Shown here piece by piece: positions 4,738 through 60,541 of a DNA stretch of 64,000 nucleotides. The stretch's first letter is position 1. Each line of letters begins with the position of its first letter. A program made the translations under genes and the position numbers. The notes under the pieces were generated by a model that was given only the letters and a program-made list of their open reading frames with translations, was not told the origin of the DNA and searched no databases. Source of the DNA: Candidatus Aenigmatarchaeota archaeon (GTDB taxonomy: Archaea > Aenigmatarchaeota > Aenigmatarchaeia > GW2011-AR5); NCBI GenBank assembly GCA_016193585.1, contig JACPRW010000006.1:293-64292 (forward strand), read 5' to 3'.

Positions 4738-4745
4738 AAAGGATA

Positions 4746-5417
4746 ATGTGCCAAACCAATATATATAACTGCAGCGAATGTATCCCTATGCGCGTTCTCA
4801 CCGAGTACGAGGCGATGCAATTCCTTGGCAGGCACGTGCCGGTTGCGCGAATCGTCGTCTGCAAGAATTCGGCAGAAGTTGTGCGGTGCGTCAAGCGGTT
4901 CAGATTTCCTGTTGTTCTGAAATTGGCTGGCGTACTCCACAAGACCGACGTCGGCGGCGTGAAAGTTGCAAGAAACTATCTTGAGCTGAGGAATGGTTAT
5001 ACGAAGCTGATGAAAACTGCCAGGAGCAAAAAGATACGACAAAAAGGGATCGTCGTTCAGGAGTTTGTGAAGGGGACAGAGGTCATCATCGGCATCAAAC
5101 GGGATGCGGCGTTCGGCCATGCGGTCATGGTCGGCATTGGCGGCATTCATGTTGAGTTGCTCAGGGACGTGTCGTTCAGGGTATGCCCGATAACCGGGAA
5201 GGACGCGGCATCGATGGTCGACGAGCTCCGGATGAAGCAGCTCCTGTTCGGCTTCCGCGGCAGCAGGCCTGCCAACGTGAAGCTGCTCACGTCGGTTCTC
5301 GTCAAGGTTTCACGGCTTCCTCTCAGGCGCAGGGACATAGAAGAACTCGATATCAACCCTTTCATGCTCAACGACAAGACGGGGAAAGTCGTGGACGCGC
5401 GGATTGTTCTCCGGTAG
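4746..5417 (+). CDS. ADP-forming acetyl-CoA synthetase beta subunit (ATP-grasp)
   Basis: ATP-grasp-like domain; divergent from alpha subunit gene; true start possibly at 4785 (MRVLTEYEA). Confidence 0.7.
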   Translation: MCQTNIYNCSECIPMRVLTEYEAMQFLGRHVPVARIVVCKNSAEVVRCVKRFRFPVVLKLAGVLHKTDVGGVKVARNYLELRNGYTKLMKTARSKKIRQKGIVVQEFVKGTEVIIGIKRDAAFGHAVMVGIGGIHVELLRDVSFRVCPITGKDAASMVDELRMKQLLFGFRGSRPANVKLLTSVLVKVSRLPLRRRDIEELDINPFMLNDKTGKVVDARIVLR

Positions 5418-8892: not shown

Positions 8893-9013
8893 GAATGATA
8901 TGCCCCTATATACCACCGACTGAAGTCGGTGGTTTCAGTGGGGCATGTCATCCCGAATGCCTTGTGTTTTATCTGCTGCCTGAAGGCAGCAGTTTTCAAG
9001 GCATTCAAGATAA
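8893..9013. repeat. About 120-bp double-hairpin repeat (family R8), second copy inverted at 52868-52990
   Basis: About 90% identity; perfect 20-bp palindrome ccaccgactgaagtcggtgg plus gaatgccttg...gctgcctgaaggcagc...caaggcattc hairpin. Confidence 0.75.
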
Positions 9014-9201
9014 GAGAAATCCTAGAATATCTTAAGCTTGATCCTGTGCCAGCAAAAGTTTACGACCTGAAAAAATTAGAAGGCAGTAAAGATAGTTTCA
9101 GAATCCGTATTGGAAAAATGCGGATTCTTTACACAATCATATGGAAAGATAAAGTCATACTGGTTTCGAGAATAGAGAAAAGGGGGACTGTCTACGATTA
9201 A
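8929..9201 (+). CDS. relE: Archaeal RelE (RelE/ParE family toxin)
   Basis: ILEYLKLDPVPAKVYDLKKLEG...IRIGKMRILYTIIWKDKVILVSRIEKRGTVYD resembles aRelE; 5' portion overlaps repeat R8. Confidence 0.7.
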   Translation: MVSVGHVIPNALCFICCLKAAVFKAFKIREILEYLKLDPVPAKVYDLKKLEGSKDSFRIRIGKMRILYTIIWKDKVILVSRIEKRGTVYD

Positions 9202-10569: not shown

Positions 10570-10672
10570 ACGACAATAATAGTAAAGAACATTGATTTTG
10601 GAACATTTTATGATGTTCTTTCCATATAGCAGATTGCAGCTAAAAGTTCCATTATTATTACAATCTGCTATA
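10570..10672. repeat. Palindromic MITE, family R1 (aagaacattg..caatgttctt + atagcagattg..caatctgctat)
   Basis: Copies at 32068-32159, 40497-40598, 49589-49680, 53171-53380, 57700-57795. Confidence 0.8.
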
Positions 10673-10706
10673 ACATACTTGCTCTTTGCCAAATAAAGCC
10701 GCGCAT

Positions 10707-12163: not shown

Positions 12164-13120
12164 CTATGCTACACGCTGTCTTTTCTTTTTGGGTACAGGT
12201 TTATTTTCTCTTTTCTTTTTTGCCTGATCGAAATGTTCTAGTTCTTTTTCATAATAGTTACTTAAACCGATGTTGCCTTCGCTTTGCGCTTTTCGGAGCT
12301 TTAGCTTATGAATCTCTATTTGCCTTTCCAGTGACCTAATGCCCTTTTTTGCGCGCTTTTTCGTGACATAGGCTATCTTTCCCTCCAGAAAAGAAACCAG
12401 CTTCATTATGGTATCCTTCGCCAATGAATGTGCTGGAATTCTTTCCCCATCTCTCCCTGCTCTATACGCATTCATAATGACAGAAAATTCTTTCATAGTT
12501 ATTCCTTCGCTCAACATTTCTTTTTTCAGCGACTTGGTTGAATATTTTTTATTAGTTAGAAAATATTCTATTAGTAAAATCTCCTTCGAGTGCATCACGA
12601 GCGGGTAAACTATATTCGTCACGTTATCACTCGCTTTCAGTAGTTCCTTTGTTATATTTAGTGAAGATTCTATCAGTTCAACCCTTTTCTCCACTCCATA
12701 GAATTCTGCTTTTCCCATCTTTAACGTACTGAGAAATTGGTGATTTATGAAGGCTACGGCTTCATCATTAATCATTTTATAGAATATTGGATCATGCACT
12801 AAAGCATTTCTTACATCTTCTATGGTTTTTACCTGTATATCATATTTCTTCTTCAATTCTGCCGGGACTTTTATTTCAACATCACCGTCAGAAACTAGCA
12901 AAATGTCAATATCAGATTCGTCTGATAATTCTTTTCTTGCTGCCGAACCGTAGAGAATTCCGCTAATGATATGCTCCAGCGGCATTTTGCTCACAACATC
13001 CTTTACAGGGTCTTTAGGTTCCTCGAGTAATTCTATGCGTACTCTTCCGCCTATCCAGTCCTTAGGTACGTAAACCCCTCCAGAGTTTCCATACTTCTTT
13101 ACCGTTTTCATTATTGGCAT
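12164..13120 (-). CDS. Fusion protein: AbrB/MazE-like swapped-hairpin domain + minimal nucleotidyltransferase (MNT) domain + helical Lys-rich C-terminus
   Basis: N-terminal VKKYGNSGGVYVPKDWIGGRVRIEL (AbrB-like); YGSAARKELSDESDIDILLVSD (GS-x9-DxD NTase motif). Confidence 0.5.
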   Translation of the reverse strand: MPIMKTVKKYGNSGGVYVPKDWIGGRVRIELLEEPKDPVKDVVSKMPLEHIISGILYGSAARKELSDESDIDILLVSDGDVEIKVPAELKKKYDIQVKTIEDVRNALVHDPIFYKMINDEAVAFINHQFLSTLKMGKAEFYGVEKRVELIESSLNITKELLKASDNVTNIVYPLVMHSKEILLIEYFLTNKKYSTKSLKKEMLSEGITMKEFSVIMNAYRAGRDGERIPAHSLAKDTIMKLVSFLEGKIAYVTKKRAKKGIRSLERQIEIHKLKLRKAQSEGNIGLSNYYEKELEHFDQAKKKRENKPVPKKKRQRVA

Positions 13121-14689: not shown

Positions 14690-14790
14690 TATAGTCGATG
14701 ACATTAGTTTTCGTACAGTCCCTAATGTCATCTCCTCATAGCAAGGACAGAACTTTTTCTGAATAGTTCTGTCACTTGCTATATTGATGC
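14690..14790. repeat. Palindromic MITE, family R3 (tagcaagtgacagaac..gttctgtccttgcta + aggagatgacat..atgtcatcgacta)
   Basis: Copies at 18822-18925, 20091-20195, 37862-37960, 53379-53425, partials 29745-29800, 53020-53060. Confidence 0.75.
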
Positions 14791-15053
14791 GTGGTCGCAT
14801 GACGTTCCCTGCAGAACATTTCGGAACCGTGAAAAAAAGGACATGGTACAAGGTGCGGTGGAACGCTCAGGCGAATCCCGAACTTGCCGGGAAGGTGGAC
14901 CTGCTGCCTGAAGACGTATACCAGAAGCAGCAACGGCACGCTACCATTCTGGAAACCATTGAAACAGATACATGCAAGGGCGGCTCGCCGCTGCGGTTCG
15001 GCGCGTGGGACGAAGAAAAAATAGATGCGTGGATAAAGGAGAACAAAAAGTGA
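14784..15053 (+). CDS. Hypothetical protein
   Basis: 89-aa ORF, no recognisable motif. Confidence 0.3.
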   Translation: MMRGRMTFPAEHFGTVKKRTWYKVRWNAQANPELAGKVDLLPEDVYQKQQRHATILETIETDTCKGGSPLRFGAWDEEKIDAWIKENKK

Positions 15054-15059
15054 ATACCA

Positions 15060-15347
15060 ATGCCGCACGGCTATACCTTTTCGACTGGCCTAGCGCCGTG
15101 GCTGTCACGCCGGGACATACTGCACGATATAAGACAGTCGCTCGAGCCCTACCACGGGATTCTTGTGGAGGAGGGCGGGGATGAACGCGGAGGACAGTAT
15201 ATGCTCTATGAAATACCAGAGCAAGGTGCTGTGTGGATATGGAGCGACAATCCGGATTCCGTTCGCGTCAGCCTTCTCGGCTTCGCTGATGGTAATGCCG
15301 TCTATTGTGCTTTGGAAGGGTATTTCAGAGATCGCATTTCCCGATAG
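15060..15347 (+). CDS. Hypothetical protein
   Basis: 95-aa ORF 7 nt downstream of previous ORF. Confidence 0.3.
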   Translation: MPHGYTFSTGLAPWLSRRDILHDIRQSLEPYHGILVEEGGDERGGQYMLYEIPEQGAVWIWSDNPDSVRVSLLGFADGNAVYCALEGYFRDRISR

Positions 15348-15398: not shown

Positions 15399-16979
15399 TT
15401 ATTCCCCGCCGAACAGCTTCAGATTCTCCTCCTTGTCGACGGGCACATCAATGATGCGGACGCCCTTCGCGCCGAGCGCTTCACGGTAGACCGCGTCAAG
15501 CTCGTTTGCGCTTTTCACTGCATAATACCCGCAGCCGAAGCTCTTTGCCAACAGCCCGAAATCAGGGTTGGCGAAGTCGGTGCCGAAGGTTTCCTTCCTC
15601 GAAGCGCGGAACTTGGCATCGATTAATGAGTACGAACTGTCGCTGAAGATGATGACGGCACAATCAAGCTTAAGGCGGACTGCGGTCTCCAGTTCCTGCA
15701 CGTTCATGAGGAAGCCGCCGTCGCCGGTCACGGCAACGACGTCCTTCTCAGGGGCGGCGAGCTTGGCGCCGAGCGCGCCGGGCAGCGCGATGCCCATGGA
15801 CGCGAGGCCGTTCGAGACGATAACGGAGCCGCGCTCGTATGCCGGGAAAGCGGCGCCAACCCACATCTTGTGCGAGCCGACATCGGAAATGACGATTGCA
15901 TCGTCATCCAGAACGGCTCGCAGCGCGACGAGCGCGTGTTTCGGGTGGAGAGGAAACTGCTCCGTCCGAAGCACACGCCGAGTAAGCAGCGACCGGTAGT
16001 CGCGGGCTTCAGGGAAATCGAACGTCTTCGTGACCATCTGGTTCAGGTGCCAGAGCGTATTCGAGATGTCTGCGACCAGTTCTATGTCAGGCTGGTAATA
16101 ATCATACACCTCTGAGGGAGAAAAATCAACGTGAATAATGCGCTTGCCGCTCCTGTTCCATTTCTGCGGGTCGAGCTCCGCTATGTCGTAGCCTATGGTG
16201 ACCACGAGGTCTGCGGCATCCAACACGCTATAGATTTCCTTCGGCGTCCCGATGCCCAGGCTCATGAGCGAATGCTCGCTCCGGTCGGATATCGCCCCCT
16301 TGCCCATGAACGTCGAAACGACCGGGACGCGCGTTCTCTCGACGAACATGCGCAGCTGGTTCGAAGCGAGCTTGCGGATGGCGCCGTTGCCGGCGAGGAT
16401 GAGCGGCTTCCTGCACGCCATGATGAACTCCACCGCTTTGTTGAGCGCCTTGTAATCAGGGGCAGGCCTGCGCACCTTCTCATGCCTGAGCACTGCGGCA
16501 TTTGTTTCGTGCGCGGCGATGTCCTCGGGGAATTCGATATGCGTGGCACCGGGCTTCTCGGTCTCGGCAACCTTGAACGCCTTCCTGACGACTTCCGGGA
16601 TGACGGCTGCGGTTGAAATGCGCGTGTTCCACTTGGTAATGGGCTTGAACATGGCGACAATGTCGATTATCTGATGCGACTCTTTATGGAGGCGCTCCAG
16701 GCTACCCTGCGCGGTTACGGCAACGAGCGGCGCGTGGTCGAGGTTTGCGTCAGCGATGCCGGTCACCAGGTTCGTCGCGCCGGGACCGAGCGTTGACATG
16801 CAGACGCCTGCCCTGCCTGAAACGCGGCCGTACACGTCAGCCATGAACGCGCTCCCCTGCTCGTGGCGCGTCGTCACGAACTGGATTCCCGACTCTTTGA
16901 TGGAGAACATGATGTCCTTCAATTCTTCTCCGGGCAGGCCGAAGACGTACTGCACGCCCTCGCTCTCGAGGCATTTCAC
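15399..16979 (-). CDS. Thiamine-pyrophosphate-dependent enzyme, acetolactate synthase large-subunit-like
   Basis: 526 aa, TPP-binding GDGG motif (VTGDGGFLMN), three-domain ALS/POX architecture. Confidence 0.8.
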   Translation of the reverse strand: MKCLESEGVQYVFGLPGEELKDIMFSIKESGIQFVTTRHEQGSAFMADVYGRVSGRAGVCMSTLGPGATNLVTGIADANLDHAPLVAVTAQGSLERLHKESHQIIDIVAMFKPITKWNTRISTAAVIPEVVRKAFKVAETEKPGATHIEFPEDIAAHETNAAVLRHEKVRRPAPDYKALNKAVEFIMACRKPLILAGNGAIRKLASNQLRMFVERTRVPVVSTFMGKGAISDRSEHSLMSLGIGTPKEIYSVLDAADLVVTIGYDIAELDPQKWNRSGKRIIHVDFSPSEVYDYYQPDIELVADISNTLWHLNQMVTKTFDFPEARDYRSLLTRRVLRTEQFPLHPKHALVALRAVLDDDAIVISDVGSHKMWVGAAFPAYERGSVIVSNGLASMGIALPGALGAKLAAPEKDVVAVTGDGGFLMNVQELETAVRLKLDCAVIIFSDSSYSLIDAKFRASRKETFGTDFANPDFGLLAKSFGCGYYAVKSANELDAVYREALGAKGVRIIDVPVDKEENLKLFGGE

Positions 16980-17106: not shown

Positions 17107-18483
17107 ATGGGTTCCTGCATGAAAGTCGTTTCCCTCAATCCTGCCACCGAATCGGTGAACAAAGAATTCGAGACCGCGCCAAAGCAGGAAGCGCTCAGGG
17201 CTGCGAGACAATCGAAATCAGGCTTCAAGCTCTGGTCGAAGCTCGACATCAAGGAGCGGGCCGTTTACCTGAAAAAGTTGGCCGGCGTCCTGCGCTCCCA
17301 CAAGGACGAGTACGCGAAGCTGATGACCACCGAGATGGGCAAGCCAATCAAGGAAGCGTTAGCCGAGGTGGAAAAGTGCGCATGGACCGCCGAGTTCTAT
17401 GCGGACAATGCAGAACGGTTTCTGGAAAAGGAGCTTGTTCAGACTGAAAACAGAAAAAGTTATGTCACGTTCGAGCCGCTCGGCGCCGTACTCGCCATCA
17501 TGCCGTGGAATTTTCCCTTCTGGCAGGCGCTGCGCTTTGGTATTCCGTCGCTCGCTGCAGGAAATGTCGTCCTCCTCAGGCACTCGAACGTCGTGCCGCA
17601 GTGCGCGCTCGCTATAGAAGCTGCATTCACCGAGGCGGGCTTTCCGGAGCACGTGTTCACAACGCTGATCACCGACCACGGCACCGTGAAAACGCTCATC
17701 CGTTCTGATTATGTCAACGGCGTTGCGCTCACTGGCAGCAATGCAGCCGGCGCTGCAGTCGCCCAGCTTGCAGGAAAGTATATGAAAAAGGCTGTCTTTG
17801 AGCTGGGCGGCAGCGACCCGTTCATCGTCCTTGACGATGCGGATATCGCGAAAGCCGCCGAGCATGCTGCAAAAGCGCGGACCATCAACGCCGGCCAGAG
17901 CTGCATTGCCGCAAAGCGCTTCATCGTCATGCACACTGTTGCTGACGAATTTGCGCGGCTGTTTGCGGAGCGCATGCAGCAGCTGAAGGTAGGCGACCCG
18001 CTCGACCCTGCGACAGACATCGGGCCGCTGGCACGGAGCGAGCAGCGGGCGCAGCTGGAGGCGCAGGTCGCGGATGCTGTCCAGAAGGGCGCAACAGTTG
18101 TATGCGGAGGGAAACGGATTGAAGGAAAGGGCTACTTCTACGAACCGACCGTGCTCACCGGCACAAAGCCATCAATGAGGGTTGTCAAGGAGGAGGTCTT
18201 CGGACCGGTGGCGCCGGTCATCGTCGTGAAAAATGAGGACCAAGCGCTTAAGGTAGCGAACGATTCCGAGTTTGGCCTGGGCGCGAGCATCTGGACGCGG
18301 AACGCAGAGAAGGGCGAGCGCATGGCACGCTTCATCGAGGCGGGGTTCGTTTCCGTCAACCAGATCGTCAAGAGCGACCCGCGCCTGCCGTTCGGCGGCA
18401 TCAAGAAGAGCGGCGTGGGCAGGGAGCTGTCACACTACGGCCTCAAGGAATTCGTGAACATCAAGACGGTGGTGGCGGGGTAA
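17107..18483 (+). CDS. Aldehyde dehydrogenase (succinate-semialdehyde dehydrogenase-like)
   Basis: 458 aa, ELGGSDP, catalytic GQSCIAA region. Confidence 0.85.
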   Translation: MGSCMKVVSLNPATESVNKEFETAPKQEALRAARQSKSGFKLWSKLDIKERAVYLKKLAGVLRSHKDEYAKLMTTEMGKPIKEALAEVEKCAWTAEFYADNAERFLEKELVQTENRKSYVTFEPLGAVLAIMPWNFPFWQALRFGIPSLAAGNVVLLRHSNVVPQCALAIEAAFTEAGFPEHVFTTLITDHGTVKTLIRSDYVNGVALTGSNAAGAAVAQLAGKYMKKAVFELGGSDPFIVLDDADIAKAAEHAAKARTINAGQSCIAAKRFIVMHTVADEFARLFAERMQQLKVGDPLDPATDIGPLARSEQRAQLEAQVADAVQKGATVVCGGKRIEGKGYFYEPTVLTGTKPSMRVVKEEVFGPVAPVIVVKNEDQALKVANDSEFGLGASIWTRNAEKGERMARFIEAGFVSVNQIVKSDPRLPFGGIKKSGVGRELSHYGLKEFVNIKTVVAG

Positions 18484-19987: not shown

Positions 19988-19995
19988 CGAGGTAT

Positions 19996-20195
19996 GGAGA
20001 AATGCACAGCATATGTCCTCAGAGGCTGCGCATTTCTCATCTAGCGAATTGCGTTTTCACAGGTCATAAGCAACGCAATTCTCTATACTATAGCAAGTGA
20101 CAGAACTATTTATACAAAATTCTGTCCTTGCTATAAGGAGATGACATCAGTAATATGTCTGAAAACGTATGTCAGCGACTATGTAACCCTTTCAC
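19996..20195. repeat. Two adjacent MITEs: family R5 (TGGAGAAATGC..GCAATTCTCTA) followed by family R3
   Basis: R5 copy also nested at 53186-53286; both flanked by TA. Confidence 0.75.
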
Positions 20196-22904: not shown

Positions 22905-25900
22905 ATGTATTCTCAGATGCGCATGAGCAAAAGCCTGTTTGAAGTAGTTGTCATACTTGTATTCGTATTCTTCGTTCTTTTCCATTATCAGCTTTCTCCG
23001 ACGGCAAACGTTACTGCAGCAGCTTCTGCACGGAGCAAGCTCGGCCTCCACACCAGTTTCCAGAACGGTGATGCGTGGAGAACCATACAGGAAGCAAAGC
23101 CGGCTGTTGTCAAGCTTTTTGGCGAATACAGGCAAGCAGCTGAAATCAAACAGGTCTCGCCATGCACGTTTATTGTGGCAAGAACAACACAACCTCAGAA
23201 TAGCCAGCGCTATGATGGAGCCCCCGAAGACAGGGCCCAGGATTGGTTCAATACCTATAAGGATACCATACAAGCTTATCCACGTATTGATTGCTGGGAA
23301 GGGTACAACGAGCCGCCTGCCCAGAATGCCGACCAGATGCGGTGGATAGGGCTTTTTGAAAAGAAGCGCGTCGAGTTGCTTGCAACGATCAACGCCAAGG
23401 CGTGCATAGGTTCATTTCCTGTCGGCAATCCGTCGATACCTGACACATGGCGCGAATTCTATCCGGCGTTTCAGGCAGCGAAGGAGAAGGGCGGTTTCCT
23501 CGCCCTCCACGAATACGGTCCGCCGAGCAACATGCAATGCTATTTCAGCGGCGACGGGCCATGGCTCAATGGTAGATACCGGAAGGTATACAATCAGTAC
23601 CTCATCCCCGATGGCCTCGTCATACCGCTCGTCATGACTGAAGCAGGGATAGACGGCGGCTTATGCGACCAGCGTGGCTGCGAATGTAACCTATGTCGTG
23701 GTGATGCAGAGAATAAATGCGGCTGGAGAGCGTACGGAATAAGCACTGAGCGGTATATGAACGACCTCAGATGGTACGATTCTGTCATCAAGGAGGACAG
23801 CTACGTCATCGGCGCCACCATATATCAAACCGGCATTCCGGGGTGGAGGAGCTTTGAAACATCTCCTGAACTGACGCAGCCGCTCATCACCTACATCAAC
23901 CAGGTCCCTGCGCCGACGCCGCCGAATTGTCCTGTTACTAGTGCTCCGCCTCCCCCACCGCCTGTACAGAAAGGCACAGTCGCAGGCACGGTCACCGACG
24001 AGAACACGGGCTTTGGCATAGGGGAAGCAACGATACGCATCGTTAGTACTGGCATAACAGGTCGACCTATGTCCCCTGACGGCGAGTACACCATTCCCGA
24101 TGTCCCTGCCGGCACCTATACGGTCACTGCGTCTGCTTCAGGGTATCTGTCGCAGTCAAAGGACCTCCAGGAAGTGAGAAACGGGGAAACGACAACGGTT
24201 AACTTCGAGCTGATCCCCGTCCCTCCGCTTGAGGCGTGCTCGCCGAACTGTTACATTGGCGATGAAGCAGGTTATGATAAACTCTGTGCTGGCGGCACGC
24301 AGAATATCTGCGGCGGCACCAAGAACTACGGCGACGTCGTGAGCTGCAGCGAAGGCGCTGCTGAATTCGATGCTCTCTGCAGGCTCAACAGGGACGACCC
24401 GTTCATCACGTATCACACATGGTCTGAGTGCAACACTGATGCTCCGGAGAAAGGCGGGCCGAACGGCGACATTGCTGACGCAGGAACGGTGTGCGAGGCC
24501 AACGGTCGCTGCGGCGCTGGCGTGCAGGGTTCATACCTCTGCGCCCAGTTCAACGGAGCAGAGGATACGTGGGTTGCCTGCGGCACTGATGTCGCAAGCG
24601 GCGGCGATATTGTTGTTGGTTCAACAACATATAATTGCTGCAGCGGTGTCTGGCAGACAACGACATGCGGCGTAACGCCTCCTCCACCGCCTCCGCCGCC
24701 GACGCCGGTAAACAAATGCACCGCCTGCGGGAGGCCGTGCCTGCGGCTCGACAGGACTATCGGCCAGTGCACGGCTGCGCTCCAGTGCATCGGCGTGCAG
24801 TCATACGTTGACGGCAAGCGGTGCTGCGCTGACGAGGACTGTTCTCTGGGGCAACAATGCACCAACGGCGCGTGCGGCGCTGCGGTGAGTCCGGGATGCG
24901 CCAATCTCGCGGCGCGCTTCCAGCGCGACCTCAACGGCAACGGCCAGCCCGACGGCAGCGACGGGCCATGGGAGCAGAGCCTGCAGGCATCGTCCGGCGA
25001 TTCCATCAACGTCGGCCTCATCGACACGAACACCATGGGCTACCCGTCGGCAACGCTCCGCGCCAGCGGCCCTAGCTTCAGCCAAACATTCAGCAGCAAT
25101 CCTGCCAATTTCAGGCCACAGACAACAGGCACCTACACGCTCTCTGCGCAGTCAGGGTCGTGCACTGCGCAGGCGACGCTGACGGTGACAGGAACGAGCA
25201 CTGCGTGCGCTGACAGCACATCGCTCAGTGCGTGTTCGGCGACCAAGCCGAAGTACTGTGATGCTTCTGGAACACTCCAAGAAAACTACTGCTTCGGCCC
25301 TGACCGGGTCGCGGGCAACGCTGATGACTGCGGGTGCTCATCAGGGGCGTGTCAGGCAGACGGCAGGTGTGGCACAGCGCTCCCTCCGCCACCTGTTGCC
25401 GATGGCGGTCTCATCCGCGCCATACAGGACGAGTTCGGCGTCACCATGCAGGGCACCTGGAGTCCTTACCCGCAGCACCTGCGCTGGATCTATGAAAAGT
25501 TCTGGGAACTGAAGCAGACCAACCCAACGTTCATGCAGATGCTGCGCGGCAGGCCGATCTGGTGGGCAACCTGCTGCCCGAACCAACTGAGCGGCTACGT
25601 GCAGATGCCGACAACCGGCAGCTATGCGTACCGCGATGCCTTCATCACGACGCTGCTCCATGAACTGGGCCATGATATTTACTTCAATCGCCGCGATGCA
25701 GGGGCACTGACAGCGCGGTACGACGCGCACTTCGACGCGAACGGCAGGCAGGTCTTCACGAGCTACGCGAATTATTATGCAGCCGATTTCAACCGCCGGA
25801 CAGAGAATTACGCCGAGGTGATTGCGTACTGCCTCACCGGCGATGCAGTGGCATACCATTCCCGTGTGCAGCCGCAGTGGATCGACACAACAAAATGGCA

Positions 25901-28829
25901 GACCTATGAAGATCTCGCCAAGGAAATAACAGGCGGCTTGTGCAAGACGAGCGTGCCGCCGGATCCTGTATGCTCTGACGGCACGGCACTCGGCGCCTGC
26001 TCCTCGCAGAAGCCCCTCCACTGCATGTACCGGGGCGACCTCGTCGAGGACTGCGAACCATGCGGCTGCGCGGCAGGAAGGTGCGATACAACGAGTGGCA
26101 GGTGCATATCGTCATTCACCATTTCAGGCACGGTGAGCGACGTAAGCGGCAACCCGCTGCCGGATGCAGTACTTACGCTTACAGAAAATAGATTCTACGT
26201 CATTGCCAGATCTCGAACAGACGGTTCTGGCAGGTTTTCTATTCCTGATGTACCGCAAAGCACTTATGAATTGTTCTCTCGAAAAGAATGCTTTGAAAGC
26301 GCTTCTGAAACGATCGATCTGGCAGCCGACTACACCAAAAATTTCAGGCTGAACGATGCAGTGCTCGGCAGGGTTGAAATCAACCCTGCTTCTTCACAGA
26401 TCGAGGCTAATCAAAAAATGCAGTTTTCTGGCGCTGCATTTGATGCGAATAACAGGGGCATGCCTGCCCGCTTCAGCTGGAGCTCGGACAATACGAACAT
26501 CGGGACCGTGACCAGCACGGGCGAATTCGAAGGCAGAAACGAAGGCAGCACTACTGTCCGCGTCAGCGCCACGTGCGGCGCGACAACGCGGAGCGCTTCT
26601 GCGACGGTGACCGTACTGCCATCAGGGAGCATCGTGCTCAAACGATGCAGCGAAGCTGATGCGAGCACACCGACGAAAGTAGACTACGTGCTCATTCCGG
26701 AGCAGTCATACACCAGCATCGACGAATTCAAGCGGGATGTAGAAACAAACTATGTGCCAAAGCTCTTTTCGATATCCCCAATTGACGCGAACAAGCAGAA
26801 GTTCAACATATATTATTACGAAGAGAAGGCAGTATGCGACCGCGACGGCCCGAAGGGCACAAAACTCTGCACGCTGCCTTCAAATCTCGGCCATGACTGC
26901 CCGTTCGCAGACATAAAAGCTGTCATCCATAAAGGCACCTGGAGAGACTACGCGATGAGAGACCGTACCTTCACCGCCAACAGCCCCATAACGCAGGTGC
27001 ACGAGATCGGCCATGCGCTCTTTGATTTAGCCGATGAATACTGCTGCGATGGCGGCTACGAAATGCGCGAGCCATACCCGAACATATTCGTCGAGCAGAA
27101 CAGCTGCCAGCAGCAGCTCGACGACAACGGGATAGCGAAACGGTGCAAGCGGCTATGCAAGGACGAGGACCAGGGAGCGTCATGCATCCTCGGCTGCGAC
27201 TGCATTAACTGGTACCGCCAGGAAGGGAAAAGCATCATGAACAACCAGTTCATCTACGAACAGTTCAGCGAAAACAACCTGCTCAGGGTAAACGACGTGT
27301 TTGGGGTATATAGCTCTGGTTCTCAGACAACTCCACAACAAACTTCGCTCGCGAGCTGTATGGCAATTACCAGTCCGGGAACCTATGTGATCGGAGCAGA
27401 CCTGCGCTCAGGCGATACGTGCATGACAATCCAATCATCCGATGTTACGCTTGATTGCGCAGGCAAAAAACTCGAGGGCACGGGCTATAGAGGAAGCGGT
27501 ATCCGCATAGAGGGAAGCGGAACTATACGGAACGTAGAAGTAAAGAATTGCATCGTGAAAGGATATGAAACAGGCATTATCGCACTCAATGGAGAGACTA
27601 TACGGATAAAAGACAATGATGTATCTGATAATTACGATGATACGAAAGGCTGGACAATGAGCAAGTGCACTGAAGACTTAGCACGGATCGGTATCGCAGG
27701 CGAAACGGAACGGAATAGGAAATGTGACATCTGCTTCAAGGCAGGGCGGTGTGGTGTGTTTCTCGGCGACCCCGAAGGCACTGGCATCCACCTCAAGAAT
27801 ACGAAATCGAGTGTTATAGAAAACACTATAGCCCATAATACAGGAATTGGCATCTGGCTTGAAAGCAGCGACAGTAATCAGGTTAAAAATAACGACGTCT
27901 CGTACTCAACTGCATTCGGCATCTACCTACTGGGAGCCAGTAACAGCGTCGTCGAAAACAATATTGCAAATGACGTTACCCGTAACTGCGCGTACTGGTG
28001 CTCTGAAACCGGATGCATCAAAGGGTGCGATGCCACGGGCATCATACTCGAGTCGCGGTTTAGGGACAATGAAAATAACATTATCAGAAAGAATACAGTA
28101 CTGAGGGGAGGCGACGGCATTTTCCTGAAACCAGGCGGGACATTCTGCAGCAACAACAATGAGATCGCAGAAAATGATGTTTCAGGGGCGTTCACCAACT
28201 GCATCGAAGTGACCTTTTGCAACGGCAACAGAATCAAGAGCAACAAAGCCCACAACTGCCCTATCGGATTGTGGCTCGGGTACGCGACCAACACCCTGGT
28301 CGAGGGTAATGAATTCATAAGCAATGCAAATGATGCCATCAATGCTGAAAACAGCAAAGGCAATACCATAAAGCGTAACGTGATTAGGCGCGGCGGGAGG
28401 GGCATCTATCTCTGGAAAAATCCTGTCACTGACCCGATTATCGAAGGAAGGAAAGTAGCAAACCCGCAGCTCAGAGAGCCATTCCCATCTTCCAATCACA
28501 TCATAGAAAGGAATACAATAGAAAATGAGCGGGGGATAGAGTTCACCGATACCGACACAACAGAAATCAGGTACAATACCATTAAAACTAAGGAAAACAT
28601 CATGCTCACGAGGGGTTCAAGCGGGGTGAAGATTTTCAGCAACAACCTGCTCTGCGAAAACTGCCTGTTTTCAGTCAAAAATGACCAGGACATTACCGTG
28701 AATGCGCAATACGATTGGTGGGGCACCGCGGATACGGCCCAGATAGAGCGCATGGTGTACCACAAGACCGATAATACTGCCGTGGGAGAAGTATACTATA
28801 CGCCGACTTTGAGTGGCACCTATGTGTGA
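22905..28829 (+). CDS. Giant (1974 aa) secreted multidomain surface protein: GH-A-like TIM barrel, Pro-rich linkers, Cys-rich modules, CarboxypepD_reg-like domains, two HExxH zincin-like domains, Ig-like (Big_2) domain, C-terminal parallel beta-helix repeats
   Basis: N-terminal TM/signal; WEGYNEP + MTEAGID (GH-A acid/base and nucleophile-like); PPPPPP(V) and TPPPPPPPPTP linkers; LLHELGHD (25659-25673) and VHEIGHALFDLADEY (26999-27013); >15 PbH1-like repeats res about 1500-1960. Confidence 0.85.
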   Translation: MYSQMRMSKSLFEVVVILVFVFFVLFHYQLSPTANVTAAASARSKLGLHTSFQNGDAWRTIQEAKPAVVKLFGEYRQAAEIKQVSPCTFIVARTTQPQNSQRYDGAPEDRAQDWFNTYKDTIQAYPRIDCWEGYNEPPAQNADQMRWIGLFEKKRVELLATINAKACIGSFPVGNPSIPDTWREFYPAFQAAKEKGGFLALHEYGPPSNMQCYFSGDGPWLNGRYRKVYNQYLIPDGLVIPLVMTEAGIDGGLCDQRGCECNLCRGDAENKCGWRAYGISTERYMNDLRWYDSVIKEDSYVIGATIYQTGIPGWRSFETSPELTQPLITYINQVPAPTPPNCPVTSAPPPPPPVQKGTVAGTVTDENTGFGIGEATIRIVSTGITGRPMSPDGEYTIPDVPAGTYTVTASASGYLSQSKDLQEVRNGETTTVNFELIPVPPLEACSPNCYIGDEAGYDKLCAGGTQNICGGTKNYGDVVSCSEGAAEFDALCRLNRDDPFITYHTWSECNTDAPEKGGPNGDIADAGTVCEANGRCGAGVQGSYLCAQFNGAEDTWVACGTDVASGGDIVVGSTTYNCCSGVWQTTTCGVTPPPPPPPPTPVNKCTACGRPCLRLDRTIGQCTAALQCIGVQSYVDGKRCCADEDCSLGQQCTNGACGAAVSPGCANLAARFQRDLNGNGQPDGSDGPWEQSLQASSGDSINVGLIDTNTMGYPSATLRASGPSFSQTFSSNPANFRPQTTGTYTLSAQSGSCTAQATLTVTGTSTACADSTSLSACSATKPKYCDASGTLQENYCFGPDRVAGNADDCGCSSGACQADGRCGTALPPPPVADGGLIRAIQDEFGVTMQGTWSPYPQHLRWIYEKFWELKQTNPTFMQMLRGRPIWWATCCPNQLSGYVQMPTTGSYAYRDAFITTLLHELGHDIYFNRRDAGALTARYDAHFDANGRQVFTSYANYYAADFNRRTENYAEVIAYCLTGDAVAYHSRVQPQWIDTTKWQTYEDLAKEITGGLCKTSVPPDPVCSDGTALGACSSQKPLHCMYRGDLVEDCEPCGCAAGRCDTTSGRCISSFTISGTVSDVSGNPLPDAVLTLTENRFYVIARSRTDGSGRFSIPDVPQSTYELFSRKECFESASETIDLAADYTKNFRLNDAVLGRVEINPASSQIEANQKMQFSGAAFDANNRGMPARFSWSSDNTNIGTVTSTGEFEGRNEGSTTVRVSATCGATTRSASATVTVLPSGSIVLKRCSEADASTPTKVDYVLIPEQSYTSIDEFKRDVETNYVPKLFSISPIDANKQKFNIYYYEEKAVCDRDGPKGTKLCTLPSNLGHDCPFADIKAVIHKGTWRDYAMRDRTFTANSPITQVHEIGHALFDLADEYCCDGGYEMREPYPNIFVEQNSCQQQLDDNGIAKRCKRLCKDEDQGASCILGCDCINWYRQEGKSIMNNQFIYEQFSENNLLRVNDVFGVYSSGSQTTPQQTSLASCMAITSPGTYVIGADLRSGDTCMTIQSSDVTLDCAGKKLEGTGYRGSGIRIEGSGTIRNVEVKNCIVKGYETGIIALNGETIRIKDNDVSDNYDDTKGWTMSKCTEDLARIGIAGETERNRKCDICFKAGRCGVFLGDPEGTGIHLKNTKSSVIENTIAHNTGIGIWLESSDSNQVKNNDVSYSTAFGIYLLGASNSVVENNIANDVTRNCAYWCSETGCIKGCDATGIILESRFRDNENNIIRKNTVLRGGDGIFLKPGGTFCSNNNEIAENDVSGAFTNCIEVTFCNGNRIKSNKAHNCPIGLWLGYATNTLVEGNEFISNANDAINAENSKGNTIKRNVIRRGGRGIYLWKNPVTDPIIEGRKVANPQLREPFPSSNHIIERNTIENERGIEFTDTDTTEIRYNTIKTKENIMLTRGSSGVKIFSNNLLCENCLFSVKNDQDITVNAQYDWWGTADTAQIERMVYHKTDNTAVGEVYYTPTLSGTYV

Positions 28830-29547: not shown

Positions 29548-29800
29548 GCGCCATTCTATAGTGAACCAAGTAAACAATCATGTATTACATCTTGGTTCAC
29601 GTACACCCAAAAAGCAAAGCTTTTTGGTGCACCGGAAAACTTTGTTTTCCGCGTGTAGCGGACAACAAAAGTACTATGCCGGTATTCTTTTGTTGGTCCA
29701 CTATAACTCTGGTTTGTCCCCTTAAAACCTTGAAAAACGCATGTTGTATCAAATGACAGAATTTTGTATAAATATTTCTGTCACTTGCTGCAAGGAGATG
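29548..29800. repeat. Composite MITE (family R6) plus partial family R3 unit
   Basis: TAGTGAACCAAG...TTGGTCCACTA with TA flanks; similar to 2094-2245. Confidence 0.75.
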
Positions 29801-31519: not shown

Positions 31520-31800
31520 TTATAGCTGACCAACTTAATATTCAGGTATTACACAAGTTGGTCACCTATAGTGAACCAAGTTATAGATAATTGCGCAGCT
31601 TATGTCGTATTAACGCGCAATTTTCTATAGGTGAATTGCAAATAATATCAGGACATATAGTGAACCAAGTAAATAATCAGGTATTGTATCTTGGTTCACT
31701 TATAGCGGACAACAAAAGTAATATGTCGGTATTCTTTTGTTGGTCCACTATAACCAGTGCAATTCACCATATAATATCCGGATTCTTTACTTGGTTAACT
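31520..31800. repeat. Nested mosaic of palindromic MITEs (families R6, H3 aattgcgc..gcgcaatt, H4 ggtgaattgca..tgcaattcacc); a 113-bp R6 element (31638-31750) is inserted inside the H4 loop
   Basis: Uninterrupted H4 copies at 49711-49754 and 55401-55444 give the empty site ggacaTAaccag; TA duplicated at 31636-37 and 31751-52. Confidence 0.8.
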
Positions 31801-32578
31801 ATAACTGACTGATACAAAAACATGCTCCGTTAGAAAGAAATTCAAATATTTTGTTGCATCGCTGTTTCTGTTGTTGTATTTGTTTTCGTATAAAGAAACG
31901 TACAAATGCAGGTTCTTTTTGCACACGCCTTTGAACATCTCAAGAAAATGTCTCAATCCCTGAAACGCTCCTTCTATGGTGTTCGTATGAACGTCTCCAC
32001 GCACGTATTCTTTTAGCGAGTGATTGGCAGTGGCGTGTCTGTATCCTTTTTTCTTCAGCGAATTGTAATAGTAAAGAACATTGATTTTGGAACATTTTAT
32101 GATGTTCTTTCCCTATAGCAGATTGCAGCTAAAAGTTCCATTATTATTACAATCTGCTATAAGCTGTGAAATCGTCTGTGTACACAGACGATTTTTTGTC
32201 AATTCTTTTCGGCACTTTGTTAACGCTTCTCTTTCGCATGTTTGGCAAAACCCGCAATGTAATCTTTCCTTTTCTCTCCACGCTGCCAACAATCGGCGGC
32301 TTGTCTTTGTCGTATGTCCCGCGTCCGCGCAATTTCAGGCCGCGTTTTCTAGGCGGCCTTTTGAGCGTTTTGGAGCCTTTTTCGCCTGCTGCGATGTACA
32401 TCTCGTCGATTTCCACTTTTCCGGAAAGCGTTTCCAAGAAACGCTTTTCATAAACGTTGTTCATGATTTTCTTCGCTATTGTGTGGATGTTCTTGTACTC
32501 CCTGCCAAGCTCCTGGGTTATCTTGTTTATGGAAATTCCGCGTTTCAATTCCTTTGCAATGTAAACCCATTCCCGCAA
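31795..32578 (-). pseudogene. IS1595-family (ISXO2-like) transposase gene interrupted by a 92-bp MITE
   Basis: N-part ...VEIDEMYIAAGEKG...VYTDDFTAY | insertion | NSLKKKGYRHATANHSLKEYVRGDVHTNTIEGAFQ... C-part; removing 32068-32159 plus one TA restores an uninterrupted YTDDFTAYNSLKKKGY frame across the junction. Confidence 0.75.
32068..32159. mobile_element. MITE (family R1) inserted into IS1595-family transposase ORF with TA target-site duplication
   Basis: TA at 32066-67 and 32160-61; element termini ATAG...GCTA; deletion restores reading frame. Confidence 0.8.
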
Positions 32579-36757: not shown

Positions 36758-36814
36758 TCTGAACTGTTGCTGTGACGCTTGTGAAAACCTATTTGAAACT
36801 TTTTCATGCTGTCG

Positions 36815-36920
36815 GTTATAGCTCTACAAGGAAACAAACAGGATATTATTTCCTTGTGAGCTATAGGTGAAACCAGTTGTAACATATCCAGATTATTTAC
36901 TGGTTTCACTATAACAACTA
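36815..36920. repeat. Palindromic hairpin repeats (agctctacaaggaaa..tttccttgtgagct; ggtgaaaccag..ctggtttcac) with TATAG/CTATA flanks
   Basis: Direct reading; related to units at 55196 and 88-268. Confidence 0.7.
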
Positions 36921-40400: not shown

Positions 40401-40412
40401 ATGCTTATCTTA

Positions 40413-40598
40413 ATAGTATGTTCTGTTGATTAGTGAACATTTCATGCAGAACATACCGTATAGCAGGTTCAGGTGAAAAGTTTGGTTATTACGTGAACCT
40501 GCTATAATAGCAGATTGTAATAATAATGGAACTTTTAGCCGCAATCTGTATATGGAAAGAACATTGTAAAATGTTCCAAAATCAATGTTCTTTACTAT
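40413..40598. repeat. Two adjacent MITEs: family R2 then family R1 (inverted)
   Basis: See 405-535 and 10570-10672. Confidence 0.8.
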
Positions 40599-40750
40599 AA
40601 GATGAACATTGAAAACACGTGACTTTAGCCGTGTGATGAAACTCAATGTATGGTGGAACAACGTTCCACCTGCATAGGTGGAATTCTCAATTCCGCCATA
40701 TGTTCATCTGGATCCCATCTTCTCACAAACTACCGGCTTCAGCCGGTGAT

Positions 40751-49229: not shown

Positions 49230-49586
49230 ATGTCATTCCATGAGGCACTCGGCCAGTCGGGCATCCTCGTCATCATCCTTTTCATCCTCTTCGTGATTGC
49301 CATCAAGAAATCGTATGAGATACTGAAGAACGTAATCCTCATCGCGGGCGCTGCCATCCTGTTCCCCCTTGTCATGAACAACATGCTCGGCTTCTCGCTC
49401 AGTACGAGCGCAGACGCGGTGGTGATGTACATAACCGCCGGCGTCGGCTTGTACCTGCTCTACCTCTTCGCCAAGTCAATCTACACGTTCCTCGGCATCG
49501 TTGAGAAGTCGGCGAAAGCTGCTGCCTCTCCGGTACGCAAAGTTATCAAGAAAAAAAGCGCGGCGCAGGACAATGATGCAGACTAA
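49230..49586 (+). CDS. Small membrane protein, hypothetical
   Basis: 3 hydrophobic helices. Confidence 0.4.
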   Translation: MSFHEALGQSGILVIILFILFVIAIKKSYEILKNVILIAGAAILFPLVMNNMLGFSLSTSADAVVMYITAGVGLYLLYLFAKSIYTFLGIVEKSAKAAASPVRKVIKKKSAAQDNDAD

Positions 49587-49588
49587 TA

Positions 49589-49790
49589 GTAAAGAACATT
49601 GATTTTGGAACATTTTACAATGTTCTTTCCCTATAGCAGATTGTGGTTAAAAGTTCCATTATTATTACAATCTGCTATAGATAATTGCGCAGCTTATGTC
49701 GTATTAACGCGCAATTTTCTATAGGTGAATCGCAAATAATATCAGAACATAACCAGTGCAATTCACCATATAATGTCAAACAAGAAATAA
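49589..49790. repeat. MITE family R1 followed by H3/H4 hairpin units
   Basis: See 10570-10672; intact H4 at 49711-49754. Confidence 0.8.
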
Positions 49791-52869: not shown

Positions 52870-52990
52870 TTTTTCTTTATCTTGAATGCCTTGAAAACTG
52901 CTGCCTTCAGGCAGCAGATGCAACACAAGGCATTCGGGATGCCATGCTCCACGGAAACCACCGACTTCAGTCGGTGGTATACAGGAGCAT
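52868..52990. repeat. Second copy (inverted) of about 120-bp repeat R8
   Basis: See 8893-9013. Confidence 0.75.
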
Positions 52991-53149
52991 ATCATTTGGC
53001 TTTAGAAATATAGCCGATGACATTGGTTTTCGTACAGTTTCTCATGTCATCTGTAGAGCCTATCCCAGTAGATAGAAAACCGTGTACCAGAGCCTGACAC
53101 GCCTAGAGGTTTGCGATGGAAAATCACTACGGCATTAACCAAAGATAAT

Positions 53150-53425
53150 TGACAAATGACCTTAATGGGATAGACGCTTATAGCAGATTGTAATATGGAG
53201 AAATGCGCAGCATATGTCCTTAGAGGCTGCGCATTTCTCATCTAGCGAATTGCGTTTTCATAGGTCATAAGCAACGCAATTCTCTATAATAATGGAACTT
53301 TTAACCACAATCTGCTATAGGGAAAGAACATTGTAAAATGTTCCAAAATCAATGTTCTTTACTATTAATTATAGCAAGGACAGAACTTTGTCTGAATAGT
53401 TCTGTCACTTGCTATAGTATTCAGC
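53150..53425. repeat. MITE family R1 carrying a nested 101-bp family-R5 element (53186-53286) in its hairpin loop, followed by a family-R3 unit
   Basis: Empty site gtaaTAataatgg present in other R1 copies; TA duplicated at 53184-85 and 53287-88. Confidence 0.8.
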
Positions 53426-55147: not shown

Positions 55148-55450
55148 CACAAGTCTTATAGCAGGTTCGAATGAAAAGTTCCAGTAGTATTCGAACCTGC
55201 TATAGCTCTACAAGGAAATAAACACGATACGAGGAGAATCGAAGATTCTCCTGTACAGGTGGATTCATGGAATCCACCTTGTATTACTTCCTTGTTTGCT
55301 ATACATGGTGAAACAACGTTTCACCTGTACAGGTAAAGCTTTGCTTTGCCATGTAGGTGACGCAAATGTATAATATCGGTATTATTTATTTGCTTCACTA
55401 TAACGCGCAATTTTCTATAGGTGAATTGCAAATAATATCAGGACATAACC
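55148..55450. repeat. Tandem array of MITEs: R2 unit, AGCTCTACAAGGAA-type element (copy of 157-265), H4 unit
   Basis: Direct comparison with copies elsewhere in window. Confidence 0.8.
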
Positions 55451-55528
55451 AGTGCAATTCACCATATAAAGCAAACACAGAAACAGCCGAACGGCAAATC
55501 TCAAAAAGTTGAAGAACATACATGGCTC

Positions 55529-57699: not shown

Positions 57700-57795
57700 T
57701 TCTTATAGCAGATTGTAATAATAATGGAACTTTTTACCACAATCTGCTATAGGGAAAGAACATTGTAAAATGTTCCAAAATCAATGTTCTTTACT
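57700..57795. repeat. Palindromic MITE, family R1
   Basis: See 10570-10672. Confidence 0.8.
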
Positions 57796-57978
57796 ATTAA
57801 TTGCAATAATTCCGATCTGTTCAAGTATCTTTGCTTCTGCGAGAACAAGTGTGCCAAACCGGCGCGCAGTGCGCGCCATTTCGCTTCTTGTCCACGCATA
57901 CCTTTTTCCTGTGCGGGACTCTTACTTCTCGCATCACTGGCAGGTATGCATGAATATGCTAGATTCGGGGGAACGGAT

Positions 57979-59895: not shown

Positions 59896-60234
59896 TCAAC
59901 TTCTTTGAACAAGTTTCAGAATTTCTTCTACGAGTAAATCGAATGTCTTGTCATCAAGCCGTGCAAATGACTTGATAACAAGCCCCTTTTCCATTTGAAG
60001 TATCTTGTCGGCACGCACGCGGGATTTTATAGGCAAATCTCCTTTTGAAAGGTTCTTGTTATCGATCAAAATGCTATACTGCTTCCCTTCAAGCTTTGAT
60101 GTAATAGCACACACTATGATATCGCTGCTTCCCTTGTTATATTCGCTGTTTGAAACGACAACAGCTGGCCTTACCTTACTTTCCCTGAAGTTTGAAAAAG
60201 GCAGCCTGACCCAGACCAAATCCTGCTGGTTCAC
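59896..60234 (-). CDS. mazF: MazF/PemK-family toxin (mRNA interferase)
   Basis: VWVRLPFSNFRESKVRPAVVVS pattern. Confidence 0.75.
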   Translation of the reverse strand: MNQQDLVWVRLPFSNFRESKVRPAVVVSNSEYNKGSSDIIVCAITSKLEGKQYSILIDNKNLSKGDLPIKSRVRADKILQMEKGLVIKSFARLDDKTFDLLVEEILKLVQRS

Positions 60235-60506
60235 TTGCTCCCCTCTCTGTATATTTTATCCCAGATAGCGTCTTCCTTACCCCAGGCTCTTTTCATCGTA
60301 CCTCTGGACAAGGATTTCCAGAATTTATCTTCGTCGTATACTGCTTCCAGAACGTCCGCTTCCCTTTTCAGCACTATTTCATCCGTTCTCTCTATCAATA
60401 CCAGAGTCGATGCTTCACTGATTCCGAAGTCTTTTCTAATGTCATCTGGAATAACTATCTGCCCGCGCCCATTTACACTAACGGTTCTTATTTTCCTATT
60501 ATTCAT
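60231..60506 (-). CDS. mazE: MazE/AbrB-like antitoxin
   Basis: VSVNGRGQIVIPDDIRKDFGI swapped-hairpin motif; 4-nt overlap with mazF. Confidence 0.65.
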   Translation of the reverse strand: MNNRKIRTVSVNGRGQIVIPDDIRKDFGISEASTLVLIERTDEIVLKREADVLEAVYDEDKFWKSLSRGTMKRAWGKEDAIWDKIYREGSK

Positions 60507-60541
60507 ACTATTCACCTTAATCTGATTATTATGATAATTAC

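Follow-up and report, generated by a model that had tools for sequence, protein, structure and literature searches.

At positions 53150–53425 of the window, the whole 64-kb stretch of archaeal DNA analysed here, one short palindromic repeat appears to interrupt another. The locus raises the question as to whether the inner repeat is a mobile element, and how elements of this kind may move. A sequence-only reading had described a copy of one repeat family (R5) nested in a hairpin loop of another (R1), with the target TA duplicated. R1, a double-hairpin repeat of 96 nt, occurs six times in the window; its copies are 90–100% identical, are all flanked by TA and lie in unrelated surroundings. In the five uninterrupted copies hairpin-a reads TATAGCAGATTGTAA-TA-ATAATGG...CAATCTGCTATA, and the stretch across the target reads ...TATAGCAGATTGTAA-TA-ATAATGGAAC... 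These empty copies, compared with the interrupted site after restoration, are:

57704–57799, plus strand: empty R1, 95/96 identical to the restored site
49584–49679, minus strand: empty R1, 96/96 identical to the restored site
40506–40600, plus strand: empty R1, 90/96 identical to the restored site
10577–10672, minus strand: empty R1, 90/96 identical to the restored site
32066–32161, minus strand: empty R1, 91/96 identical to the restored site

The sixth, filled copy (53179–53367) is built from the following parts:

53179–53195, plus strand: left part of R1 hairpin-a with the flanking TA, the stem TAGCAGATTG, the first loop bases and the target TA (53194–53195); identical to the empty copies
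53196–53286, plus strand: R5 element, non-coding, 91 bp, 88/91 identical to 19995–20085; its excision with one TA restores R1
53198–53239, plus strand: hairpin A of R5, with a perfect 14-bp stem (GAGAAATGCGCAGC/GCTGCGCATTTCTC) and a 14-nt loop
53243–53286, plus strand: hairpin B of R5, with the stem TAGCGAATTGCGTT/AACGCAATTCTCTA (13/14) and a 16-nt loop
53287–53288, plus strand: right copy of the duplicated TA
53289–53367, plus strand: remainder of R1, comprising the rest of the hairpin-a loop, the right arm (to 53319), hairpin-b (AAAGAACATTG/CAATGTTCTTT) and the flanking TA (53366–53367)

In silico deletion of 53196–53288 leaves a 96-nt R1 that equals the reverse complement of 49584–49679 at every position and 57704–57799 at all but one. 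Apart from the insert and one TA, the R1 sequences on both sides of R5 are perfectly colinear with the empty copies, and the TA that occurs once in each of the five empty copies occurs twice at the filled site. Both the nesting and the doubled TA of the sequence-only reading are borne out by this restoration, as is the colinearity of the flanks with other R1 copies. Its measurements needed correction. The insert spans 91 bp rather than 101, the proposed start at 53184 falls in the left arm of R1 whereas the insert proper begins at 53196, and the ends (TGGAGAAATGC...GCAATTCTCTA) form better TIRs (9/11 and 12/16 matches) than the 7-bp imperfect repeat that had been recognised. A three-way structure is predicted for the filled R1, with a folding energy of −42 kcal/mol (z = −8.5) and with R5 placed in the loop of hairpin-a.

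Since a 91-nt match at 97% identity is combined with a perfectly restored host element, we can exclude chance as the origin of this arrangement. The sequence comparison supports the interpretation that R5 is a mobile element with TA-specific insertion, nested here within an R1 hairpin loop. We also considered a 3-bp (ATA) duplication and rejected it: the free-standing R5 copy is preceded by GTA and followed by ATA, and the ends of the element are symmetric only under TA duplication. The junctions cannot separate two routes to this outcome. Duplication of TA by a staggered cut, as made by a DDE transposase, and integration 3' of a TA, as in HUH-type systems, by an element whose own end supplies the second TA, would leave the same sequence.

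An assembly artefact, in which R5-in-R1 would be a chimeric repeat join in a metagenome contig, is extremely improbable. The source is indeed a MAG, and k=31 Logan contigs of the same organism (SRR12113428 and related runs) have both ends inside hairpin modules, which indicates that short-read assemblies of this lineage are fragmented by the hairpin repeats. These assemblies break exactly at the repeats, so the R5/R1 junction is spanned by no independent contig. Against a misjoin, R1 and R5 have no sequence in common beyond TA, so that a k-mer-based join would not be expected; both junctions are exact and leave the host fully restorable; and TA-flanked nesting recurs at several loci and in an independently assembled second MAG. 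One of the Logan contigs also carries an extra F11 hairpin, a member of another family described below, just past the right end of the window.

The second R5 copy in the window is not nested:

19993–20087, plus strand: second R5 copy; element at 19995–20085, TAs at 19993–19994 and 20086–20087

A free-standing, TA-flanked copy had been noted before at 19996–20090; the copy is real and the boundaries shift to those given here. The two copies found in the 64-kb window are 97% identical, differ at 53207, 53221 and 53261, and are both flanked by TA. The free-standing one begins 5 nt past the stop codon of a peptidase M23 gene and lies one base from an element of the D3 family. Hairpins A and B are paralogues of each other and of the TAGATAATTGCGC hairpin found at 49678–49721 and 31584–31627. 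R5 (91 bp) and R1 (96 bp) are too small for any ORF, and both are intergenic. They show features by which MITEs are recognised: small size, lack of coding sequence, TIRs, a target duplication visible in filled and empty sites, and dispersed similar copies. R5 is best explained as a non-autonomous transposable element of 91 bp that has no coding sequence and is made of two paralogous hairpins.

R5 in R1 is part of a larger nest. At 53009–53416, a D3 unit is split by approximately 317 bp that contain first a 126-nt hairpin, here called X, and then the R1 copy carrying R5. The separated halves are:

53009–53052, plus strand: GATGACAT hairpin, which forms one half of a double hairpin of the D3 family; in the copy at 14690–14784 the two halves are contiguous
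53370–53416, plus strand: TATAGCAAGGACAGAAC hairpin, the other D3 half, 45/46 identical to 14738–14783

Hairpin X is a single-copy segment (53053–53178) with imperfect inverted arms (TAGAGCCTATCCCA / TGGGATAGACGCTTA); it is probably a further hairpin element whose loop contains an insert that escaped recognition.

Comparable insertions occur elsewhere in the window. The two-hairpin unit E2 (31658–31752) lies inside the loop of a GGTGAATTGC hairpin, where the filled site reads ...GGACA-TA-[unit]-TA-ACCAG... and the empty sites (55411–55471 and 49715–49775) read ...GGACA-TA-ACCAG... The mini-hairpin pair E5 (55230–55281) occupies the loop of a TAGCTCTACAAGG hairpin that is empty at 36814–36867 (GGA-TA-TTA). 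The E5-filled composite is found in two places, 159–258 and 55199–55297, which are 96% identical; in one of them the left TA has become TG. Since the composite is present twice, the nest must have been copied later as a unit. The E2 unit also belongs to a three-level nest (31521–31803) in which an outer TATAGTGAACCAAGT hairpin encloses the TAGATAATTGCGC and GGTGAATTGC hairpins, the loop of the latter carrying E2, and in which all junctions are flanked by TA. Nests in the window are three to four levels deep, and all nested insertions are found in loops.

At least three clean filled/empty pairs, R5/R1, E2 and E5, thus show one TA becoming two, and to this extent the earlier suggestion of several independent pairs in support of TA-specificity stands. 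E4 deviates from simple TA duplication. This 52-nt G+C-rich double mini-hairpin (CACCC...GCGTG) is found at 29603–29654 (TA-flanked span 29601–29656) and, on the minus strand, at approximately 2136–2187 (span 2134–2189). A composite with two class-I hairpins (a module type defined below) carries it between them in two of its copies and lacks it in a third (31700–31703). The filled sequence GTA[52]TAG compares with TTATAG at the putative empty site, and a net TA duplication is absent; judged from these sequences, the junction may be an excision footprint or the result of TA slippage. Nested hairpins also mark a 120-nt repeat present at 8894–9013 and, inverted, at 52877–52995 (93% identical); both of its hairpins are G+C-rich and enclose a smaller one. 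The motif GCTGCCTGAA, considered as a variant of the Neisseriaceae DUS, is merely part of this repeat.

These nests are drawn from a dense population of hairpins. Perfect hairpins with a stem of 10 bp or more number 39 in the window, compared with 0–3 in five shuffled versions. Reading 20 repeat clusters by eye (rigid gap-free scans for TA-palindromes were too noisy or too strict), we counted approximately 56 class-I and 20 class-II modules, together about 3.4 kb or 5% of 64 kb. Class-I modules are near-perfect palindromes of 44–50 nt with the layout TA|TAG-stem-loop-stem-CTA|TA; class-II modules are mini hairpins of 21–26 nt with 3-nt loops and the ends TA|CA...TG|TA. The recurring units are mostly double hairpins (R1, R1', R5, D3, F11+F12, D6+F10, E5, E7 and pairs of mini hairpins). 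They are mostly AT-rich in a background of 52% GC, and have inserted in both orientations into spacers that look untranscribed. Long-range inverted repeats that could be taken for IS borders are just pairs of hairpin copies around housekeeping genes. In a published census archaeal genomes reach at most 146 MITEs per Mb, as counted by another detection method (PMC11602168); the window holds more than one module per kb.

Unrelated stems distinguish at least six families, within each of which the copies are 93–100% identical. The elements have been active recently. At least 20 distinct stem (TIR) sequences are present, which have in common TA and approximately two to three terminal bases only; among ten flanks examined, TA is the sole common sequence. 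What is conserved between subfamilies is found in the loops and tips. In the group with TATAG-GTGAAC ends, the loop motif (~AATAATCAGGTATT) and the tips are kept while the inner stems differ, with compensation in six of the seven predicted pairs. R1 and its relative R1' (10577–10673 compared with 40411–40507 and 408–504) are 71% identical, retaining loops and tips while both stems are replaced. In hairpin-b of this pair the arms GAACAT/ATGTTC swap sides, and a third GAACAT is kept in the loop.

The same superfamily is present in other assemblies. A scan with the F11 hairpin led to the JGI contig Ga0209211_10262610, where two class-I modules (795–905) adjoin rpS19e. The S19e protein encoded there is 92% identical to that of JACRMW010000034.1, a contig of a second Aenigmarchaeota MAG (GCA_016219465.1, 37% GC). 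This contig carries an F11-like hairpin and many mini hairpins, which form pairs and arrays with a single TA between neighbours (...CTG-TA-CAG...) and also occur nested inside a class-I loop. The modules are located as follows:

35–300, 4690–4960, 14990–15140, 15970–16050 and 17680–17790 of JACRMW010000034.1: hairpin modules

Alignment of F11 from the three sources gives a mean column identity of 85%, and one stem pair changes from AAG/CTT to AAC/GTT between genomes. The 48-nt hairpin is thus approximately 85–90% conserved across genomes of 52% and 37% GC, which suggests that it has either spread horizontally or is under sequence constraint. No member of the superfamily was found in 20 kb from each of two Aenigmarchaeota with a GltX that is 68% identical. 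Pattern searches gave 0 matches to the R5 junction in genome contigs and in viral contigs, 0 to R1 in metagenome contigs and in viral contigs, and 0 to a relaxed F11 pattern in viral contigs.

We then turn to the question as to which enzyme may move these elements. The genes of the window are archaeal (TrmB, RtcB, DUF1512, Kae1), and its GltX is identical to MBI2971658.1, a protein from a Candidatus Aenigmarchaeota MAG encoded on a contig of 195,805 bp, the nearest others being approximately 70% identical. RtcB is a poor guide to taxonomy here: its best match among genome contigs reached just 74% identity, and the protein is scattered by horizontal transfer. None of the 72 window ORFs of at least 80 aa contains a transposase, integrase, HUH or reverse transcriptase domain according to Pfam and NCBIfam; this includes DDE_3, HTH_Tnp and Y1_Tnp/RAYT domains. 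Searches of unannotated window ORFs with Pfam, NCBIfam and PDB sequences likewise revealed no hidden transposase. With 72 of 72 ORFs lacking a transposase, the elements are non-autonomous within these 64 kb. The window has no match to Rfam families or tRNAs. In JACRMW010000034.1, a 201-aa ORF enclosed between the arms of a 16-nt inverted repeat was considered as a transposase and dismissed, as nothing marks it as such: Pfam does not recognise it, and the window encodes no homologue of it.

Further loci of the window deserve mention in their own right. The first 30 residues of the ORF at 12164–13120 (minus strand) match the NCBIfam model "DUF2080 family transposase-associated protein" (41 bits, cutoff 22); this part is fused in frame to a nucleotidyltransferase domain, and no transposase adjoins it. 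Toxin-antitoxin modules are also present in this small DPANN genome: a PemK/MazF toxin gene preceded by a MazE-like gene (59896–60525), and a weak ParE-like ORF (8929–9201). Finally, the product of 22905–28829 (plus strand) is 1974 aa long and combines CarboxypepD_reg, Big_2, NosD and beta-helix domains; it is probably a surface protein of giant size.

The elements integrate precisely at TA, occur in multiple copies, have been re-mobilised as composites and lack coding capacity. Leaving aside the identity of the enzyme, we consider it very probable that R5 is a TA-specific, MITE-like element mobilised in trans. R5 would have entered the TA within the loop of R1 hairpin-a, leaving a TA on either side, and R5, R1 and the rest of the TA-flanked palindromic superfamily would be moved by an enzyme encoded outside the window. 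The ends of each element (...CTA|TA or ...TG|TA) and its AT-rich loop supply new TA targets, which would explain both why neighbours in tandem arrays share a single TA and why elements nest in loops.

Our first choice for the putative enzyme, a tentative one held at somewhat less than even confidence, is an IS630/Tc1-mariner-type DDE transposase that makes a 2-nt staggered cut at TA. This choice is favoured by the TA duplication, the likeness to Correia elements, the presence of IS630 in archaea and the mariner-like tips. Many ends have the form TA|YAGGTG (for example TA|TAGGTGAA and TA|CAGGTGGA), which we take to resemble the tips of mariner TIRs (CCAGGTG, TTAGGTTGG). Sulfolobus SM1/ISC1048 and the Stowaway elements of plants are MITEs derived from IS630/Tc1-mariner elements. 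MITEs of the IS630 type, among them RUP of Streptococcus pneumoniae, are characterised by duplication of TA; they are likewise small and non-coding, have TIRs and a TA on both sides, and insert into other mobile elements to form nests (PMC2229807); IS630 itself occurs in archaea (PMC13343696). Unlike these MITEs, the elements described here have a DPANN archaeal host and no cognate IS or transposase in the window, and consist of 21–97-bp units that are nearly all hairpin, with dozens of unrelated "TIRs" that have two to three terminal bases in common and with conserved loops and covarying stems.

Correia elements of Neisseria share the TATAG...CTATA termini, the TA target duplication, the intergenic location and the ability to form hairpins, and the enzyme that mobilises them is likewise an open question (PMC2649163). 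They differ in having a 26-bp TIR (TATAG[CT]GGATTAA(CAAAAA/ATTTAAA)...) around a 50–100-bp core, for a total of 104–157 bp (PMC2649163), compared with 45–97 bp here. Termini in the window such as TATAGCAGATTG and TATAGTGAACC agree with the published Correia pattern in TATAG only. A Neisseria/Correia origin, considered in view of the TATAG ends and the 52% GC, was rejected: the genes of the window are archaeal, the canonical DUS is absent, and so is the body of the Correia TIR.

Several observations speak against mobilisation in trans by a DDE transposase. No autonomous partner or transposase was found in the 64-kb window. At least 20 stems, several of them recently active, are hard to reconcile with one sequence-specific DDE enzyme in a small genome; judged by sequence, the TIRs vary too widely to suit a single cognate enzyme. 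The 21–26-nt modules are shorter than any duplex able to loop into a classical paired-end complex. Covarying stems with conserved loops are the reverse of the classical MITE pattern, and E4 shows no net TA duplication. The diversity of the stems, the coexistence of at least six families of near-identical copies and the stem covariation make a route via single-stranded hairpins a serious rival.

The rival that we rank close behind the DDE transposase, possible although on balance unlikely, is an enzyme of the HUH/Y1 type, akin to IS200/IS605 TnpA or to a RAYT, that would "peel and paste" folded single-stranded hairpins. Such an enzyme would cut after the TA at the foot of a hairpin and insert 3' of any single-stranded TA; the right-hand TA would be the element's own, and the duplication merely apparent. 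A route of this kind would account for mobile units that are typically double hairpins, comparable to the LE and RE hairpins of such elements, for modules as short as 21 nt, and for the placement of every nested insertion in a loop. It would also suit stems that vary between subfamilies and genomes and stay paired, loops and two to three terminal bases that are conserved while the stems change, and many unrelated stems that are active concurrently. IS200/IS605 is the commonest IS family of archaea (PMC13343696). Against it stands the lack of a Y1/HUH domain in the window ORFs; moreover, the perfect symmetry of TA|TAG...CTA|TA is what would be expected of a DDE element with TA duplication, and palindromy could persist through quasi-palindrome correction, for which selection is not needed. 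Known IS200/IS605 elements also argue against this route, as their hairpins are subterminal and set back from the ends, their targets measure 4–5 nt and they have no TIRs.

The derivatives of such systems, REP/REPIN-RAYT and the PATEs of IS200/IS605, resemble the present elements as short extragenic palindromes that often occur as doublets, are recognised as hairpins and can have covarying stems. The window differs from REP/REPIN in that its elements lack a one-ended GTAG/CGTC tag and have symmetric ends (TA|TAG...CTA|TA) with TA on both sides; Y1_Tnp/RAYT is absent among the window ORFs. RAYTs are described from bacteria with GTAG/CGTC-tagged REPs (PMC3733652). The double-hairpin layout of an IS200/IS605 PATE fits, but here the hairpins reach the very ends and TIRs are present.

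Somewhat less likely again is a structure-guided system in which TA|YA...TR|TA hairpins, usually in pairs, would be excised and inserted at TA whatever the sequence of their stems, by an enzyme that would recognise the fold, for instance an HUH-like one or a structure-specific nuclease or ligase, instead of a sequence-specific DDE transposase. Class-I modules could additionally be recognised by their conserved loop motif.

RNA offers another route, in which the hairpins would be transcribed, processed and re-inserted. Such RNA-mediated spread has been proposed for the GC clusters of yeast mitochondria, 42-nt hairpins whose mechanism is also unsettled and alongside which a double-hairpin element of Allomyces is cited (PMC4478555). 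The analogy to these GC42 clusters is close: they are hairpins of approximately 40 nt with a constraint on the stem and a putative duplication of a dinucleotide, AG, and their units merge and shuffle (PMC4478555). Stem covariation would suit an RNA structure as well. GC42 clusters differ in that they reside in organelle genomes and are GC-rich in an AT-rich background with AG flanks, whereas the present elements are chromosomal, archaeal, mostly AT-rich and flanked by TA. We consider the RNA route very unlikely here, given that Pfam identifies no reverse transcriptase in the window, that insertions occur in both orientations in untranscribed-looking spacers, that poly-A-like or 3'-end signatures are absent, and that Rfam matches number zero.

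Nested TA-specific insertion of MITEs is known. An ultra-short modular hairpin superfamily of Aenigmarchaeota with many stems and conserved loops appears to be undescribed, and literature searches found no description of one. DPANN genomes are small and streamlined, yet approximately 5% of these 64 kb is recently active selfish hairpin DNA. Perfect filled/empty pairs, three-to-four-level nests and re-amplified composites provide unusually clean natural experiments. The structure-guided reading, if true, would constitute a mode of transposition not yet described for chromosomal elements, acting on units from 21 nt upwards. If mobilisation depends on structure rather than on TIRs, these elements would offer a tractable system for learning how very short palindromic elements move, a question that they share with Correia elements, organelle GC clusters and double-hairpin elements.
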